From the IMG/VR virus record IMGVR_UViG_2687453297_000004: a stretch of DNA of 38,250 nucleotides. One strand, written 5' to 3'. Below, one piece after another: positions 3,622 to 12,274 of the stretch (position 1 is its first letter; each line of letters starts with the position of its first letter). Under the pieces are notes generated by a model. That model saw only the letters and a program-made list of their open reading frames with translations. It did no database searches and was not told the origin of the DNA. Both the position numbers and the translations under genes were made by a program. The stretch comes from a virus. Its lineage: Duplodnaviria > Heunggongvirae > Uroviricota > Caudoviricetes.

Positions 3622-4827
3622 TTAAACCCCTTTGACAACGTCAGCGTTGACCTGTGGAACCCCGATTTCAGCGGCCAGATTCATGGCGGCTATTACCAGG
3701 TTACTGACGGCCAGCGGATACAGCAGGCTGACCATATTTTTACGATGACTTCCCGGATTGCTCAGGCGGGCACGTATGGCATCCACTGCGCTGGCGTCCA
3801 TAATGTCCGTCAGTTGTTTACCGGCCCGTTGCAGTTTGAACGTCAGAAACTCTTCAAGGTTATTGTCCAGAGGCAGAAGTTCGACCACCTCACAGCGCTG
3901 AACGACTTCACGGACTTCCATATTGCGTTCAGACAGTTTTGTCGCCAGTTCCGGCTGGCCAATCAGCACGATGGACAGCAGTTTTTTGAAACCGGACTCC
4001 AGCTCAAAAAAGCGTTTGAGGTGTTTCAGTGTCGGAATGGGCAGACTGTGGGCCTCCTCAATCACCAGAACGTGGCTGAACCCCGCCTGGCTGCTGTCTT
4101 TCAGGACGCGATGCAACTGGCGAAAGCGGGCGTCCTGACTGCGTCTGATGCTTTCCAGTGGTGCGATGGTACTGATAATGGCTTCGGCAATCGCTGCTGC
4201 CTTCAGGGTTTTCCCTTTCACATCGTTGTCTTCCATAGCGATGATGTATGGCTCGATAACAATTACCGGCGCATTCTCGCGGTTGATACGTTCAGTCAGG
4301 TCGCGGCGCAGCGTGGATTTACCCGCACCGGACTCACCGATGACGGCCATAAATCCACCATGACGGGCTGTCTGGTACAGCGCCTCACGCACATAGCGGA
4401 TGTCCGGGGTGGTGAACACATCATCAGAACCCTGCATGGCTTCGTCGGCGAACGGGTCACGGAAAAGACCAAACGCTTTTTTGGTTGCTGGAAATAACAC
4501 CTGTTTTTTGAGTAACATATTCTCTTCCTCACTGAGGCTCGTTTTATCTGTGGTACCCGCTGTACGGGGCGTGGCCGCGACCTGTACAGCATCAAAACTC
4601 TTCGTTGTATCAATCCCCTGACTTTCCAGCCAGGACGCAAGACGCCGGCGCACTTCTCCGGGGCGGGTGCGGGGCCACGCGTTATGATTCACAATCTGGG
4701 CCAGCGTGGCCTCAGAAACATCGACAGCTCTCGCCACCACCGCCTGTGAGATACGGGCCTCTTTCAGTTGCTGCTTCAGTACCAGCATGTTTTCCTCCTC
4801 AGTTGCCGTTAACAATGCTGATAACAC
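3622..4827 (-). CDS. MuB-like AAA+ transposition ATPase (target DNA activator)
   Basis: 401 aa; Walker A GESGAGKST; N-terminal HTH-like segment; lies immediately downstream of and overlapping the transposase gene, as B follows A in Mu. Confidence 0.75.
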   Translation of the reverse strand: MLSALLTATEEENMLVLKQQLKEARISQAVVARAVDVSEATLAQIVNHNAWPRTRPGEVRRRLASWLESQGIDTTKSFDAVQVAATPRTAGTTDKTSLSEEENMLLKKQVLFPATKKAFGLFRDPFADEAMQGSDDVFTTPDIRYVREALYQTARHGGFMAVIGESGAGKSTLRRDLTERINRENAPVIVIEPYIIAMEDNDVKGKTLKAAAIAEAIISTIAPLESIRRSQDARFRQLHRVLKDSSQAGFSHVLVIEEAHSLPIPTLKHLKRFFELESGFKKLLSIVLIGQPELATKLSERNMEVREVVQRCEVVELLPLDNNLEEFLTFKLQRAGKQLTDIMDASAVDAIRARLSNPGSHRKNMVSLLYPLAVSNLVIAAMNLAAEIGVPQVNADVVKGV

Positions 4828-6568
4828 TGCTGCGGGCCGGCGTGGTCAGCGTGGCCATGACTTCATCCAGTGCGGCTTCCGGTACGCCGTCCGGGTACTG
4901 TGCCGTTAACTGGCGGTAATGTTCCGGCGTCCAGGTAAGGCCGTCGGCGCTGAACTTATCGCGCAGGGCTTTCGCGGCCTCCACATGAGTCATGGGACGT
5001 TGTTCAGTGCGCGGCCCGCGTACGTCAGAGGCCTGACCGCGCTTCGGCATATAGGCCGGAAGTGTGGCGTCATCAATATGTTTATACGGGTCAAGCCGCC
5101 CGCCGAACGGCAGCGCCTTCGCCTTGCGTGCGGCAGCTGCATCTGTGGCGTTGTCTGTACCGGTGACCAGTGCTTCAGTTTCTTTTGCCGCCGTCTGCGC
5201 CGGTGTTTCCGGCAGGGCTTTGTAACTTTCGCCAAATACCGCCGCGCCTTCAGCAAAGCCAAACTCGTTCTTTCTGACCTCTTCGACCAGGAAGAACGTC
5301 TCGTGGCCGTCCTCACCGGTCAGAACCACCTGTGCCACATCGCTGCGCCACGGGTTACGGGTAATCATCAGTTTTTCACCGACCAGTACGCCCGGTACCG
5401 TTGATACGTCAAATTCAGTGCCCCGGAACGAGACACGAAGTTTTGGCGTGACTTTGCGGAGTTCTGGCGCCGCCACAGCCAGTTCACGACATACCTCAAC
5501 GGAAGGCGCTTTTTTCAGCTGCTCAGCAGTAATCTTCAGCCAGATATCCGTGCGGGTTTTACCGTGGCGGCTGTGAACAGCCGTGGCGTTAAAGTGGCTG
5601 CGCCATTTCGCGGCCAGCGCGTTGAGTTCTTCCAGACTGTGAACCGGCCGGAACTTCAGACCCGGCTCCAGCTTGCGTTCGATAATGTCTCGCGCCTTTT
5701 CCACCTGTCCGGTGGCGCGGGCGTTATGCGGCTTGTGCGCTATCAGGTCAATGCCCAGTGAGCGGCACATGTTTTTCGTCATACCCGCGGTGTTTGCCGA
5801 GCCGGGGTCGAGATAGAGTATTTTTGGCACGCCGTGCAGCACGTCTGCGCCGCCACGCTCCTGCATGGCGTTGATAAGCACAGAACACAGGTTCTCACCG
5901 GATTCCGCACCCGTCACATACTCAACGTAAATCCAGCCGCTGGCATGGTCGGTAATCTCATAACTCCACACGCGGTCACTGGCGATACGGGCAAGGTTAG
6001 CGGGCTTGTTCTTGTAGAATTTCGCGCTGTCCATCACCTGCAGCCCTTTGTGTCCATTGCTCAAGTAGTAAAGCGTGCAGAGCGAGGCATCAATCTGCCA
6101 GACATGATTGGGATGCAGACTGGCCACTTCGGTATGCGGCGCAGGGGCATCCAGTTGTTCCGGGTGCAGGCCATAGTTACGCAGGGCACGGCTGATGGCA
6201 TCTTCGGACAACGGGAAAAACTCACCGGTGGTTTCATCTGTTCTGCCTGCGGAGATAAAGCCGTTAGCCCGCAGGGTTTCCACTGCATCCGCGATGGAAT
6301 AGAGACGCTTACCGTTCTTGCGGGTGGCCTCACGCAGTGTGGCAGATATCAGCGCGGCTTCGTCGCGGGTCAGGGCGCTGCGCCCGGCATCGGCGCGTTT
6401 TTTGCGTTTATCAGTCACAGAGACCTCCTTCAGCCTGCGCAGCAGAGTGGCGCGGGACATGCCAAGTTCAGCACAGGCAGCGTCGTATATTGCACCGCGT
6501 TTACCATGCCCCGCGTCACGTGCCGCGCGGGCGACATAAACCAGTCGTTCAGTCAGGGCAGCATTCAT
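4799..6568 (-). CDS. DDE transposase (Mu/rve integrase-core type)
   Basis: 589 aa; N-terminal HTH region; candidate DDE residues in HVWQIDAS, LYLDPGS and GQVEKA; position between the Ner-like and MuB-like genes. Confidence 0.85.
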   Translation of the reverse strand: MNAALTERLVYVARAARDAGHGKRGAIYDAACAELGMSRATLLRRLKEVSVTDKRKKRADAGRSALTRDEAALISATLREATRKNGKRLYSIADAVETLRANGFISAGRTDETTGEFFPLSEDAISRALRNYGLHPEQLDAPAPHTEVASLHPNHVWQIDASLCTLYYLSNGHKGLQVMDSAKFYKNKPANLARIASDRVWSYEITDHASGWIYVEYVTGAESGENLCSVLINAMQERGGADVLHGVPKILYLDPGSANTAGMTKNMCRSLGIDLIAHKPHNARATGQVEKARDIIERKLEPGLKFRPVHSLEELNALAAKWRSHFNATAVHSRHGKTRTDIWLKITAEQLKKAPSVEVCRELAVAAPELRKVTPKLRVSFRGTEFDVSTVPGVLVGEKLMITRNPWRSDVAQVVLTGEDGHETFFLVEEVRKNEFGFAEGAAVFGESYKALPETPAQTAAKETEALVTGTDNATDAAAARKAKALPFGGRLDPYKHIDDATLPAYMPKRGQASDVRGPRTEQRPMTHVEAAKALRDKFSADGLTWTPEHYRQLTAQYPDGVPEAALDEVMATLTTPARSSVISIVNGN

Positions 6569-7493: not shown

Positions 7494-7802
7494 TTATAAA
7501 CGACTACCTGAAATGACACGTTGGTTGATTTCGTTAATACGATCCTGCGCTCGTGCCATCTCGTTACTGTGAGCCATGGCGATCTGCAGTAACTGGATGC
7601 CCGGTGCAAAACGTCCATTCTCCAGTTTCAGGGCCAGCCCTTCTTCAATGAGGGTGTTGAGTGCCCGATTAATGTTTGCTGGTGACTCGTGCAGTGCTGC
7701 CGCCAGTTCACCGTTGGAGATACCGTTCAGAGCGTGGCCACGTAACGCCTTAAGAACACGCAAAATACGGGTACCTGCGCTTGATGTATTTGGTTTATTC
7801 AT
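7494..7802 (-). CDS. Putative winged-helix DNA-binding protein
   Basis: 102 aa; HTH-like segment ISNGELAAALHESPANINRALNTLIEEGLA; second gene of the early operon. Confidence 0.45.
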   Translation of the reverse strand: MNKPNTSSAGTRILRVLKALRGHALNGISNGELAAALHESPANINRALNTLIEEGLALKLENGRFAPGIQLLQIAMAHSNEMARAQDRINEINQRVISGSRL

Positions 7803-8023
7803 GACACCTCCTTAAGGATACCGGGGGTAACTTCTTTACCTATTGCAACCGATAGATCTCGCAAAATCCGATAAGTCAAACGACCACGTGGTAGTTCACT
7901 TTTACCAGCCCAGCGACTGACTGCCTGTGTGACTGTTCGTGGCTCATAGCCTGCGTTAAGCGCGAACTGGCGCAAGCTACTGCCTCGTTCAACTAGTCGT
8001 GCCCGAACTTGTTGTTTATTCAT
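7799..8023 (-). CDS. Ner/Nlp-like HTH early regulator
   Basis: 74 aa; first gene of the leftward early operon, divergent from the repressor; pattern SLRQFALNAGYEPRTVTQAVSRW resembles Ner/Nlp DNA-binding proteins. Confidence 0.5.
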   Translation of the reverse strand: MNKQQVRARLVERGSSLRQFALNAGYEPRTVTQAVSRWAGKSELPRGRLTYRILRDLSVAIGKEVTPGILKEVS

Positions 8024-8096
8024 ATGCGGATAGTTCCAGTTGGGTTATCATGTACTCAATATGAATAAATGTACTTATTCAAAATAAATAAATCAA
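8024..8096. promoter_or_regulatory. Divergent early/repressor promoter-operator region
   Basis: 73-bp AT-rich spacer between divergent ner-like and repressor genes; inverted repeat TGAATAA-N6-TTATTCA (8062..8081) and two direct ATGTACT copies (8050..8056, 8069..8075). Confidence 0.4.
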
Positions 8097-8528
8097 GTGG
8101 AATTACGCAAAATGAATAACAAAGATGTTAACGCTGTGCTTTCCCGGTTAATGTCACTATTCCAAGCAGAGAATGATAGTGAGTTGGCAAGAGCGCTTAA
8201 CGTCAATAGGCAGACACTTGCAAGTTGGAGGAAGCGTGATTCTGTGCCTTATGCAATTTGCATAAACATCGCAGAAGAAAAGGGGGTTTCTTTAGATTGG
8301 TTGCTAACAGGTAGAAAACAAGGTTTATCAAAAGAAGTAGACGTAACTCCGACGCAAGTGCAGTTTAGCCAAGCTGACCTTACTATGCTTGAGCTTTTAA
8401 AGCAGCTAGACCCCGAGGTTCGTAACGATCTTCTGCGAGGCGCTGCGGAAAAACAGCGAGTGATCGAGATGGAAAAACAACTGAAGGAATTATCCGCAAC
8501 GATTGAGCGGTTAAAAAATGTGGGTTAA
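8097..8528 (+). CDS. CI-type phage repressor (HTH)
   Basis: 143 aa (start could be GTG 8097 or ATG 8112, no obvious SD, possibly leaderless); LARALNVNRQTLASWRKRDSVPYAICINIAEEKGVSLDWLLTG matches the phage CI repressor HTH signature; divergent from the early operon. Confidence 0.7.
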   Translation: MELRKMNNKDVNAVLSRLMSLFQAENDSELARALNVNRQTLASWRKRDSVPYAICINIAEEKGVSLDWLLTGRKQGLSKEVDVTPTQVQFSQADLTMLELLKQLDPEVRNDLLRGAAEKQRVIEMEKQLKELSATIERLKNVG

Positions 8529-8650
8529 TCTATTCCCAATGAGAACAATTGACAAGGTTATCAAACCTCTTCGTTATATGCGCTGATTTAAACAGTAGGA
8601 TGTGCTGTTTGCACTAACCATCTGAACTTTCCGCGTTAAGGATTAATCGT

Positions 8651-9993: not shown

Positions 9994-10761
9994 CTACTCT
10001 AAATTACTTACAATAAGTTCGCGCCGTAGTGTTCCCTTTCCTGCAAGACTGTAGTTGACCTTCACACAGTGAATGTTCAGACCGTTAAAAACCTGCCGCA
10101 TTTCCGGGATATCGTTGACCGATATAATCATCTTTCCTCTGATGCAACGGGCCAGCTCTGCCAACCGCGAGTAGTTCCCTTCAGGAAAATCCACACCATA
10201 GCCTTCCGTACCCAGGTACGGTGGGTCGCAGTAGAACAGCGTGTGCGGACGGTCATAACGCTCAATGCACTGTTGCCAGTCCATGTGTTCTATCACCGTT
10301 CTGGAAAGTCGCAGGTGTGCCGCTGAGAGCTCTTCCTCAATACGCAGCAGGTTGAAGCGTGGCGGGGATGTGGTGGAGGTGCCGAAACTATGCTCTGCCA
10401 CCTTGCCACCAAACGCCTGCTTCTGGAGGTAGTAGAACCGTGCCGCACGCTGGATATCCGTCAGTGTTTCTTCCGGGGTGATCTGCAGCCATTTGTAGAT
10501 CTGACGGCTGACCAGCGCCCATTTGAACTGGCGGACAAATTCTTCCAGGTGATGCTTTACCACCCGGTACAGATTCACCAGTTCACCGTTGATATCATTG
10601 ATGACTTCGATCTTGCCGGGTGTCTTAAGAAAATAGAGCGCTGCTGCCCCACAAAACGGCTCCACATAACATTCATGCGCCGGAAACAGCGGCAGAATGT
10701 GTTTTGCAAGGCGGCGTTTGCCACCAATCCACGGCACGATGGGTAATGTCTGCATTTTCAT
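9994..10761 (-). CDS. Orphan DNA N6-adenine methyltransferase (Dam-like)
   Basis: Motif I-like PWIGGKRR and motif IV DPPY (FYCDPPYLGTEGYG); start taken at the internal ATG 10761 (MKMQTLPIVPWIGGK), although the ORF is open to 10851; no adjacent restriction endonuclease gene seen. Confidence 0.8.
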   Translation of the reverse strand: MKMQTLPIVPWIGGKRRLAKHILPLFPAHECYVEPFCGAAALYFLKTPGKIEVINDINGELVNLYRVVKHHLEEFVRQFKWALVSRQIYKWLQITPEETLTDIQRAARFYYLQKQAFGGKVAEHSFGTSTTSPPRFNLLRIEEELSAAHLRLSRTVIEHMDWQQCIERYDRPHTLFYCDPPYLGTEGYGVDFPEGNYSRLAELARCIRGKMIISVNDIPEMRQVFNGLNIHCVKVNYSLAGKGTLRRELIVSNLE

Positions 10762-10865
10762 AATCTGTAAGCCTTTTACAATTATTAAAAAATATGGCAG
10801 TCTGGTCAGGTCTCGCGAGACTGACTGAACCTTGGTCGGCTCACAGCGCATTCCTGTGGGGCGAT

Positions 10866-11167: not shown

Positions 11168-11570
11168 GATGCACTCCTTAAATGATGATTTTTATGTACT
11201 CACCGGCAAAATATTCTGCCGATTACTGAACACGCATCCGGCACCTCAGGTTTTGATTTATTCTGGTTTTTTCGATATCCCGGACCAGGTTGATCACGAC
11301 CAGAAAAAGTGCCGGTGTTTTATTGATACGCTGATATGGCTTCGGGATAACAGCTATATTCGTTACTCTCAGTTGCTGGCTGTGGGAGCGGCTGATGTCG
11401 TCCTCACGGAAAAAACGCTCTGTCTGCTCAATGCCATGCCGACCTTTCTGCAGCCCCGGCCCGTACCATTTAAAGAGTCACTTCTGGATGCAGTAAAAAC
11501 CGGTGAAAATGCAGTCATCGCTGAATGCGTATCCCGGATTATGCGTTACGTGTTTAATGAACGTAAGTGA
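11166..11570 (+). CDS. Hypothetical protein (134 aa), uncertain
   Basis: Long open frame exactly filling the gap between two minus-strand genes; weak SD; its start codon overlaps the divergent start of the 71-aa ORF, so only one of the two may be real. Confidence 0.3.
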   Translation: MMHSLNDDFYVLTGKIFCRLLNTHPAPQVLIYSGFFDIPDQVDHDQKKCRCFIDTLIWLRDNSYIRYSQLLAVGAADVVLTEKTLCLLNAMPTFLQPRPVPFKESLLDAVKTGENAVIAECVSRIMRYVFNERK

Positions 11571-12274
11571 GGTTTATCCGCTGTCTGCATAATCCCGATA
11601 GCCAGTGCGAGGGGAAGTAATTCCGGGGAAACTCTTTCAAACAGCGATGCCCATTCTCCTCTCGCCATCACTCTGTCCAGCCCGCCCCCCAACTGCATTT
11701 CAGCAATCTTCCTGATTTCCCGGAACAACGCCGCTTTGATCTCTTCATGCTCAGCTTTATTTTCCGGTGTCAGAAGGTATTCGTCGAAGAACCGGGGAGG
11801 CTGGTTAATCGGGATGTGTTCCTGTTTGCCGTACTTCGGAGACGAACAACATTCTGTTGGCTGACCGGTGAGTTTACGTAACTCCTTCATGAGCAGCTCC
11901 TGATCGTAAACTGTCATCAGTGCCGCAATGGTGGCATGCAGTGCATCGGGCAGTATCCAGGGTTGCCGGCCCGTGGGGCATATAACATCCAGCAGCTCAT
12001 TCGTCCGACAGATACGCTCCTCGCCGTATGACAACAGGCCCTGTCCCGTGTATTCCTCCAGCCTGATCACTGTGCCACCCCGTGGCTTCTGCCAGGTCGT
12101 CAGATCTTCGCCATTCATACGGCGCTCATTCTCCACGTCAGCAGCATCGACAATGACGCTGTTTCCGAGTTCCTGTTTCACCATCTCTTCTATCCGCGCC
12201 AGTACGTAACTTTTACCGCTGCCCACAGGACCGGACACAGTGACAGTGATGACCGGATTCAGTGTGTGCGTCAT
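11546..12274 (-). CDS. P-loop NTPase of unknown function
   Basis: 242 aa; Walker A GPVGSGKSY near the N-terminus and Walker B-like VIVDAADVE; strong SD GAGGAG upstream; divergent from the late operon. Confidence 0.6.
   Translation of the reverse strand: MTHTLNPVITVTVSGPVGSGKSYVLARIEEMVKQELGNSVIVDAADVENERRMNGEDLTTWQKPRGGTVIRLEEYTGQGLLSYGEERICRTNELLDVICPTGRQPWILPDALHATIAALMTVYDQELLMKELRKLTGQPTECCSSPKYGKQEHIPINQPPRFFDEYLLTPENKAEHEEIKAALFREIRKIAEMQLGGGLDRVMARGEWASLFERVSPELLPLALAIGIMQTADKPHLRSLNT

Follow-up and report, generated by a model that had tools for sequence, protein, structure and literature searches.

A candidate four-operator repressor switch in a BcepMu-type transposable prophage, with one operator inside the repressor gene

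The early region and its divergent regulators

The stretch of DNA analysed here (the window, 38,250 nt) is a BcepMu-type transposable E. coli prophage, in which the early operon is inverted relative to Mu. The leftward early operon starts with a ner-like gene, and a repressor gene is read divergently from it:

8112-8528, plus strand: repressor gene (138 aa), divergent from the ner-like gene
7799-8023, minus strand: ner-like gene (74 aa), first gene of the leftward early operon
7494-7802, minus strand: gene for an IclR-like helix-turn-helix protein, after the ner-like gene in the early operon
minus strand, between the IclR-like gene and the transposase gene: DUF3102 gene, early operon
4799-6568, minus strand: DDE transposase gene, early operon
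minus strand: further early genes, the last of which is Mor

On the plus strand the repressor gene is followed by a few cargo genes and then by lysis, head and tail genes. Of 5426 complete E. coli genomes, 22 carry the DNA of the window at an identity of at least 99% and represent the same immunity type, and 603 have related early regions.

A mechanical reading-frame call starts the repressor gene at GTG 8097. We found that relatives conserve ATGAATAA(A/C) at the repressor start and carry 1-2-nt indels just upstream of it, that the frame from the GTG meets a stop (TGA) in one aligned relative (L026), and that RefSeq also starts the gene at ATG 8112. These observations indicate that ATG 8112 is the true start and that the intergenic spacer is 88 bp long (8024-8111). 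The original prediction described this spacer as AT-rich and 73 bp long; its composition was described correctly (27% G+C in 8024-8096 vs 54.5% across the window), while the length had been counted from the GTG.

[quoted passage not shown] This helix-turn-helix domain was the only one found in a Pfam scan of the whole 143-aa reading frame, which gave no match past residue 74 and detected neither an S24 (self-cleavage peptidase) domain nor a C-terminal domain of the 186 CI type. Residues 9-72 weakly resembled the N-terminal domain of 186 CI (2fjr, E=0.03). A low-confidence single-sequence model (pLDDT 56) predicted that five helices at the N-terminus and two at the C-terminus are joined by a disordered linker (residues 67-86), a layout that would fit a dimer or higher oligomer formed through the C-terminal part that is shared among the relatives described below.

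The Ner-like protein is of the BcepMu gp16 family (phrog_8503, E=1e-34). The corresponding model TIGR04111 (BcepMu_gp16) scored 29 bits, below its cut-off of 34, and HTH_35 matched with E=0.007, likewise below its cut-off. Similarity to Mu Ner is distant (33% identity over 42 aa, pairwise E=5e-4). Relatives at 58-99% identity were found in 21 species.

Repeats between the divergent genes

The original prediction placed in the spacer an inverted repeat, TGAATAA-N6-TTATTCA (8062-8081), and two direct copies of ATGTACT, and proposed them as binding sites for the CI-type repressor, the Ner-like protein or both, controlling the lysis-lysogeny switch. Read directly from the letters, both features are present exactly as described. 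TGAATAA (8062-8068) and TTATTCA (8075-8081) form a perfect 7+7 inverted repeat with a 6-nt spacer, and ATGTACT occurs at 8050-8056 and 8069-8075. Judged from the window alone, these repeats are weak evidence and not clearly beyond chance, exceeding it only marginally: when the 73 bp were shuffled with dinucleotide counts preserved, 7.4% of shuffles contained a perfect 7+7 inverted repeat whose loop was no longer than 12 nt, 25% a 7-mer direct repeat, and 1.9% both.

A repeat search returned an 18-nt direct repeat family with copies at 8053, 8076 and 8104, each of which is a 17-bp palindrome of the form TTATTCA-N3-TGAATAA. Allowing up to 3 mismatches, this form had 7 matches in the whole window against 0.75 expected, a number reached by none of 100 shuffles. 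The pattern TTAYKCANNNTGMRTAA, allowing up to 2 mismatches, had exactly 4 matches in 38 kb (0.93 expected; 0 of 100 shuffles reached 4), and all four fall inside 214 bp (8052-8265):

8052-8068: Oa, GTACTCA-ATA-TGAATAA (GTACTCAATATGAATAA), 1 mismatch to TTAYKCANNNTGMRTAA
8075-8091: Ob, TTATTCA-AAA-TAAATAA (TTATTCAAAATAAATAA), 1 mismatch
8103-8119: Oc, TTACGCA-AAA-TGAATAA (TTACGCAAAATGAATAA), 0 mismatches
8249-8265: Od, TTATGCA-ATT-TGCATAA (TTATGCAATTTGCATAA), 0 mismatches, a perfect palindrome

A search for the predicted 20-bp motif gave 2 matches at up to 3 mismatches (0.85 expected); it is the 17-bp unit that recurs, four times within 8052-8265. By this pattern the putative binding unit is the palindrome TTAYKCA-N3-TGMRTAA, with half-site centres 10 bp apart, since Oc and Od match as 17-bp palindromes and no half-site partner in the N6 arrangement was seen when the flanks of Od were read by eye. 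Half-site centres about 10 bp apart are the usual geometry of a helix-turn-helix dimer.

Oa, Ob and Oc (centres 8060, 8083 and 8111) are three tandem pseudo-palindromes of about 17 bp between the divergent genes, and Od lies inside the repressor gene (codons 46-52, PYAICIN), its centre 146 bp from that of Oc. The inverted repeat at 8062-8081 consists of the right half of Oa and the left half of Ob, i.e. it is the junction of two adjacent operators. Its arms are very probably both contact sites of the CI-type repressor, as had been suggested, with the binding unit in the opposite arrangement.

Promoters

The promoter scan detected only one strong sigma-70 promoter here in relatives, which occupies the homologous position and reads towards the ner-like gene. 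It is TTGACA-16-TACAAT in the phage record KP12 (11/12 consensus positions), TTGACG-16-TATACT in L014 and TTGACC-16-TAAAAT in L010. Alignment with these strong promoters placed a predicted early promoter, Pe, in the window:

8068-8096, minus strand: predicted early promoter Pe, -35 TTGATT (8096-8091), 17-nt spacer, -10 TACATT (8073-8068)

A promoter scan of the window made no call at this place, Pe having 8 of 12 consensus positions and the tool a threshold of 9. Relatives with a repressor like that of the window keep TTGA(T/G)T and TA(C)nnT at the hexamer positions, and the exact position of Pe is inferred from this alignment. Transcription would be expected to start near 8061 and to run leftward into the ner-like gene.

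The proposed operators are closely interleaved with Pe. Oa covers the predicted start and touches the end of the -10 hexamer, and Ob fills 16 of the 17 spacer bases between -10 and -35 and overlaps the -35 by one base. Five of the six bases of the -10 hexamer lie in the 6-nt spacer between the arms of the inverted repeat, and they are also part of the second ATGTACT copy. In relatives this hexamer (TACATT on the minus strand) reads TACACT, TACGCT, TACGAT or TACAAT, and the first copy lies within a conserved block described below. ATGTACT is thus not kept as a repeat and is not a site in its own right, and its proposed role as a repeated operator is not upheld.

A promoter for the repressor gene was not located by the scan or by inspection of the region by eye. 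Two candidates were rejected as having no convincing -35 or consistent conservation: a -10-like TGGAAT (8098-8103), which would give a leaderless mRNA from ATG 8112, and a conserved TAnnAT (TATCAT, 8046-8051) facing Pe. No Shine-Dalgarno sequence was seen at a normal distance from ATG 8112, so the repressor mRNA is possibly leaderless or poorly translated.

The sites change with the DNA-binding domain of the repressor

Relatives were gathered with the Ner-like protein and the repressor as queries (21 genome loci, 19 viral-contig loci and the phage record KP12), and the comparison took in about 35 related prophages. We distinguished two types: type I has a repressor like that of the window (PF07022), and type II has a KP12-like repressor with another N-terminal DNA-binding domain, for which only weak, below-cutoff matches to the RstR and DicA models were found. 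The two types share the C-terminal helical half of the repressor (62% identical between the window and KP12).

The window and KP12 provide a direct comparison. Their Ner-like proteins are 99% identical, and their repressor N-terminal domains are unrelated. The IclR-like protein is 90% identical between these heteroimmune phages and was rejected as a reader of the repeats. Their intergenic sequences match between the ner-like start codon and about 8060 and show no relationship past that point, and among 61 E. coli genome records matching 7990-8330, 39 cover 7990-8060 only. From these two boundaries, the immunity module starts at about 8060, inside Oa.

Fifteen distinct type I sequences, from several enterobacterial genera, keep the half-sites; variation is seen in the flanks and in the 6 nt that separate Oa from Ob. 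The arms of the inverted repeat are conserved in 14 further distinct relatives with the same repressor DNA-binding domain. The right half of Oa is (T/C)GA(A/T)TAA in all 15, and type II has TGGGTCT instead. In the window Ob has a degenerate right half (TAAATAA). L030-L033 and L007 have a perfect TTATTCAAAATGAATAA at Ob, and in L009 it is Oc that reads as a perfect TTATTCAAAATGAATAA. In every relative there is a palindrome at the position of Ob, and its sequence differs with the repressor. Where the repressor is another one, palindromes of other sequence stand at three or four of the corresponding positions. Examples with other sequences are:

KP12: Ob GCACCCAAACGGGTAT; Oc not clear; Od with a weak right half
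L019: Ob ATTCCCAAATGGGATT; Oc TTCCCATATGGGAA, over ATG GGA ATT; Od TCCCAATTGGGA
L018: Ob GCACCAAAATAGGTGC; Oc not listed; Od GCACCAATTTAGGTGT
L011/L012 (Azotobacter, type I): Ob degenerate (CGCATAT); Oc right half TGCGTAA; Od right half TGCGTAG
L005 and L014 (type II): Od equivalent GCACTCATTTGGGTAT

L019 has TCCCA..TGGGA at Ob, Oc and Od alike. TAGGTG was found in L018 alone among the loci, and there at both Ob and Od. In Azotobacter the repressor starts MRK, encoded by ATGCGTAAG (ATG CGT AAG), in place of ATG AAT AAA. [quoted passage not shown] That different arms stand at the same position where this domain differs also ties them to the lysis-lysogeny switch, in agreement with the original prediction. 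The relatives share ancestry and the conservation counts are therefore non-independent, a dependence that leaves the co-variation across types, and the synonymous-site contrast given below, unaffected. Heteroimmunity in the group would then reside in the repressor N-terminal domain together with about 60 bp of operator DNA.

We also considered that the operator is the 20-bp inverted repeat (8062-8081) as such, with a single repressor dimer sitting directly over the -10 and the other matches being secondary or accidental. Its two arms are perfect in the window and kept in type I relatives, enterobacterial type II phages have an equivalent TTGGGT-N11-ACCCAA around the -10, and the predicted flexible linker (residues 67-86) could in principle allow an unusual half-site spacing. 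However, the distance between the arms differs (6 nt in type I vs 11 nt in type II), whereas the half-site centres of the palindromes are 9-10 bp apart in both repressor types. Type II phages of Pseudomonas have no recognisable outer half-site at Oa and still have the palindrome in the promoter spacer. Together with the opposite arrangement of Oc and Od, this makes the 20-bp unit unlikely, and we retain the 17-bp palindrome as the probable unit.

A conserved block linked to the Ner-like protein

A second conserved element lies in the early leader, at about +4 to +30 from the predicted start:

8032-8057, minus strand: Ner-linked block, 26 bp, GAGTACATGATAACCCAACTGGAACT, consensus GTACAT-N2-TAACCnA-N3-GGAAC

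The block is kept in 16 loci, from Enterobacterales to Pseudomonas and Azotobacter, with either repressor type, and its consensus occurs once in the window against 0.06 expected. It holds the first ATGTACT copy and overlaps the left half of Oa, GTACTCA, which is conserved in relatives of either type; conservation of that half-site may be owed to the block and not to the repressor.

The Ner-like protein has been put forward as a possible reader of the repeats, and it might bind them in the manner of lambda Cro and so switch the promoters. The ner-like gene is the first early gene and adjoins the repeats, and lambda and P22 offer a precedent, Cro and the repressor sharing operators in both. Against this, the protein is unchanged (99% identical) in phages whose arms are entirely different, indicating that it does not read the arms; the block at 8032-8057 is conserved with it instead, and in Mu the Ner and repressor sites are separate. 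We therefore consider shared operators very unlikely and discard that part of the original prediction. Among candidate binding sites for the Ner-like protein, this block ranks first. Separate sites for repressor and Ner-like protein would be a Mu-like feature, unlike the shared sites of lambda, and the Ner-like regulator and its candidate site would be common to the immunity types.

Two further kinds of repeat were set aside. Half-site copies at the starts of the ner-like gene (8016-8022) and the IclR-like gene (7795-7801) are attributed to chance, since relatives have ATGAACAAA at the ner-like start and KP12 has MSK at the IclR-like start. For the same reason, a perfect inverted repeat of 11 nt (8015-8025 / 8059-8069) is taken to be peculiar to the window.

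Oc and Od are constrained as DNA within coding sequence

Oc overlies the repressor start codon; its right half begins with the TG of ATG 8112, continues through codon 2 and ends two bases into codon 3. Both Oc and Od were examined at synonymous positions. In the 15 distinct type I genes we took codons at which the amino acid is invariant and more than one codon is possible. All five such codons inside Oc and Od were invariant as codons, vs none of 29 elsewhere in the repressor gene (Fisher p=3.6e-6). In the same genes, more than half of the codons for shared amino acids differ between the window and each relative.

At Od, codons 46, 47, 49 and 50 (CCT TAT ... ATT TGC) are identical in 15/15 type I genes, and codon 48 is TCA in all 14 genes that encode Ser. 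At Oc, codon 2 (AAT), which is the Oc codon in the Fisher test, is invariant and codon 3 is AAA wherever Lys is encoded, codons 1-3 being identical in each relative that shares the residue. A corresponding stretch is seen in type II, where CAT TTG GGT ATA within codons 51-56 is nearly invariant, Pseudomonas included, and adjacent codons are highly variable; at the place equivalent to Od, an operator sequence of their own is found in type II repressor genes. Taken together, these patterns indicate that Od is constrained as DNA and follows the specificity of its own gene product. It offers a clean example of a regulatory site hidden in coding sequence and detectable by its frozen synonymous positions. 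In the window, a Ser48Ala change (TCA to GCA) has made Od perfectly symmetric.

An origin of the repeats in the AT-rich promoter region, for instance from A/T tracts or from codon usage at MNK-type starts, with no protein reading them, is strongly disfavoured by these data. The shuffle frequencies of 7.4% and 25% given above would be compatible with it, as would the fact that 3 of the 4 ATGAATAA copies in the window are start codons. Such an origin does not account for the clustering of four 17-bp sites or for synonymous positions frozen inside Oc and Od only, and the co-variation extends to Pseudomonas and Azotobacter relatives, which are GC-rich and have sites that are not rich in A+T.

Another suggestion would be that the inverted repeats act as RNA hairpins in the repressor or early leader, affecting stability or translation. 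The arms at 8062-8081 do pair as a 7-bp hairpin in the minimum-energy fold, but the fold is no better than those of shuffles (z=-0.18; early leader z=+0.79) and no Rfam match was obtained. The Od of most relatives combines two valid half-sites into a palindrome that is not perfect, which points to a protein site and not a stem, and we give an RNA role next to no weight.

A model for the switch

The preferred reading, to which we assign a probability of roughly 0.7, is a repressor switch with four sites, Oa-Od, around Pe and in the repressor gene. The repressor would bind as a dimer to the 17-bp palindromes TTAYKCA-N3-TGMRTAA. Oa and Ob flank the predicted -10 and Ob fills the space between -10 and -35, and their occupancy would keep RNA polymerase off Pe. 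With Pe blocked, the transposase and replication genes would be silent, maintaining lysogeny and immunity. Oc lies over the repressor start codon and in all likelihood over the transcription start, and repressor bound there would exert negative autoregulation. Od might form a small DNA loop with the promoter-proximal sites through repressor oligomers, or act as a roadblock, in either case tightening repression or autoregulation. The Ner-like protein would act elsewhere, most likely at the block at 8032-8057.

A more far-reaching version concerns Oc and Od. The repressor gene would hold a site for its own DNA-binding domain within the codons of that domain's helix 4, and a second one made of the start codon and first two codons, and repressor bridging the two would close the first 146-159 bp of the gene into a loop. 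This proposal is tentative, and we think it somewhat more apt to fail than to hold. The distance from Oc to Od is 146 bp in type I vs 159 bp in type II, and we make no firm claim from helical phasing as an argument for looping. If the proposal is true, protein and operator sequence co-evolve in the same nucleotides, and the arrangement has outlived one or more swaps of the DNA-binding domain, along with several shifts in specificity, across lineages that span Enterobacterales and Pseudomonas.

Within the literature that could be searched, we found no published operator or switch study of this phage or its close relatives, and no footprint, binding or transcript data on them. For this widespread group of transposable prophages, for which we found no such map in print, the present comparison supplies operator and promoter positions that can be tested.

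Comparison with known switches

The switch is of an ordinary, known kind of phage regulatory region, mapped here in a family for which we found it described in no publication; the feature of some wider interest is the self-encoded intragenic operator Od. As in lambda OR, three tandem 17-bp pseudo-palindromes, with centres 23-28 bp apart, lie between the divergent genes for repressor and early regulator, the sites extend over the lytic promoter, and the one closest to the repressor gene reaches its start. The repressor mRNA may lack a leader, as at lambda PRM. Unlike lambda, the repressor has no S24 domain in the Pfam scan, the early regulator appears from the comparison of heteroimmune phages not to share the operators, a fourth site lies within the repressor gene, and replication is by transposition. 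Because the lytic promoter here adjoins the repressor gene, the two promoters have to overlap or be convergent.

The CI repressor of the lactococcal phage TP901-1 has palindromic operators OR, OL and OD, with OD in the mor coding sequence, and among its relatives operator topology is conserved while operator sequences differ (PMC7250872). Palindromic operators including a distal intragenic one, and a non-cleavable helical repressor, are common to TP901-1 and the phage studied here. The distal site is in the early gene mor in TP901-1 but in the repressor's own gene here, and MOR is an antirepressor that is bound to CI, whereas the Ner-like protein has a candidate DNA block of its own.

Phage 186 CI binds several inverted repeats at pR, with cooperating distal flanking sites. 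Its N-terminal domain is of the same family (PF07022), the direct match to 2fjr being the weak one noted above. In contrast to 186 CI (192 residues), the repressor here has 138 residues and no 186-type C-terminal (wheel of dimers) domain was found in it; flanking sites about 300 bp off on both sides and promoters that face each other are features of 186.

DicA of the E. coli Qin prophage is similar in length and layout, and the NCBIfam DicA model (PRK09706) aligns with residues 22-134. The scores, 21.6 bits for the window protein and 40.8 for that of KP12 vs a cut-off of 101, show that the repressor is not a member of this family.

Mu is likewise a transposable phage in which the repressor gene is divergent from an operon that starts with ner followed by the transposase gene, and its Ner, to which the Ner-like protein is distantly similar, has its own site, distinct from the repressor operators. 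Unlike the CI/Xre-type repressor described here, the Mu repressor is related to the N-terminal part of MuA, and its operators also serve as the transposition enhancer. Sharing of operators with the transposase in this fashion was rejected for the present phage, as repressor and transposase showed no similarity in BLASTP (E=7.1). The sites here are palindromes, vs a repeated 11-bp consensus in Mu, and the layout is that of BcepMu.

Annotation of the region is mended at two points by this analysis, namely the start codon of the repressor and the ner-like gene, which is missing from the RefSeq annotation. In strain Ecol_745 the prophage is inserted within a DUF2300 gene.

Mosaic joints in the immunity region

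Genome matches and comparison of the repressors located two mosaic joints:
about 8060: joint within Oa, a predicted 17-bp repressor operator
8280-8528: joint within the repressor gene

The immunity module begins inside Oa, as 39 E. coli genomes match the window up to 8060 only. The C-terminal half of the repressor (62% identity) was found to be common to repressors with unrelated N-terminal domains, a combination that points to domain exchange. Within the repressor gene, codon 48 (within 8249-8255) is Ala (GCA) in the window, whereas all 14 of the other type I genes (those with the window-like N-terminal domain) carry Ser (TCA). It is due to this replacement that Od, the predicted operator inside the gene, forms a perfect palindrome in the window, TTATGCA-ATT-TGCATAA.

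The Ner-like gene and its upstream block

The early side of the region contains two features:
7799-8023, minus strand: Ner-like gene, 74 aa, matching phrog_8503 (E=1e-34)
8032-8057: 26-bp block, reading GTACAT-N2-TAACCnA-N3-GGAAC on the early strand

Relatives of the Ner-like gene were found in 21 species at 58-99% identity. It is omitted from the RefSeq annotation of NZ_CP015074.2, and this omission accounts for an apparent 309-bp gap there. The block is kept together with the Ner-like gene and is conserved from Enterobacterales to Pseudomonas independently of repressor type; its pattern occurs once in the window. We regard it as a candidate binding site for the Ner-like protein, or as another candidate early-leader element.

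We also found four copies of ATGAATAA in the 38-kb window, all inside 325 nt (7795-8119), three of them being the start codons of the ner-like, IclR-like and repressor genes. Among these copies, only that of the repressor is conserved in relatives, and the ner-like start in relatives reads ATGAACAAA.

Downstream of the repressor gene

Beyond the repressor stop codon lie the following:
8527-8555, minus strand: promoter-like site TTGTCA-17-TAGATT (9/12), just beyond the stop codon
8651-12274: cargo region, separating the repressor gene from the lysis genes
9994-10851: Dam-type methylase, in the cargo region

Transcription from the promoter-like site would run antisense into the repressor gene; the site does not exceed chance expectation (0.6 per region). 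The cargo region also encodes a 297-aa ORF, a small membrane protein (neither with an informative family) and three further ORFs. When four cargo ORFs were scanned, three had no PADLOC match and the fourth (11546-12274) matched only SngB, weakly (E=0.009).

The genes at the cargo position of KP12 differ from those of the window. The KP12 record, OM835952.1, is titled 'Klebsiella phage KP12 clone KP12_2, partial sequence' and classified in Vequintavirinae; its content is that of a BcepMu-like transposable phage with transposase, Ner-like gene and repressor. The entry probably represents a co-induced prophage deposited under an incorrect name.
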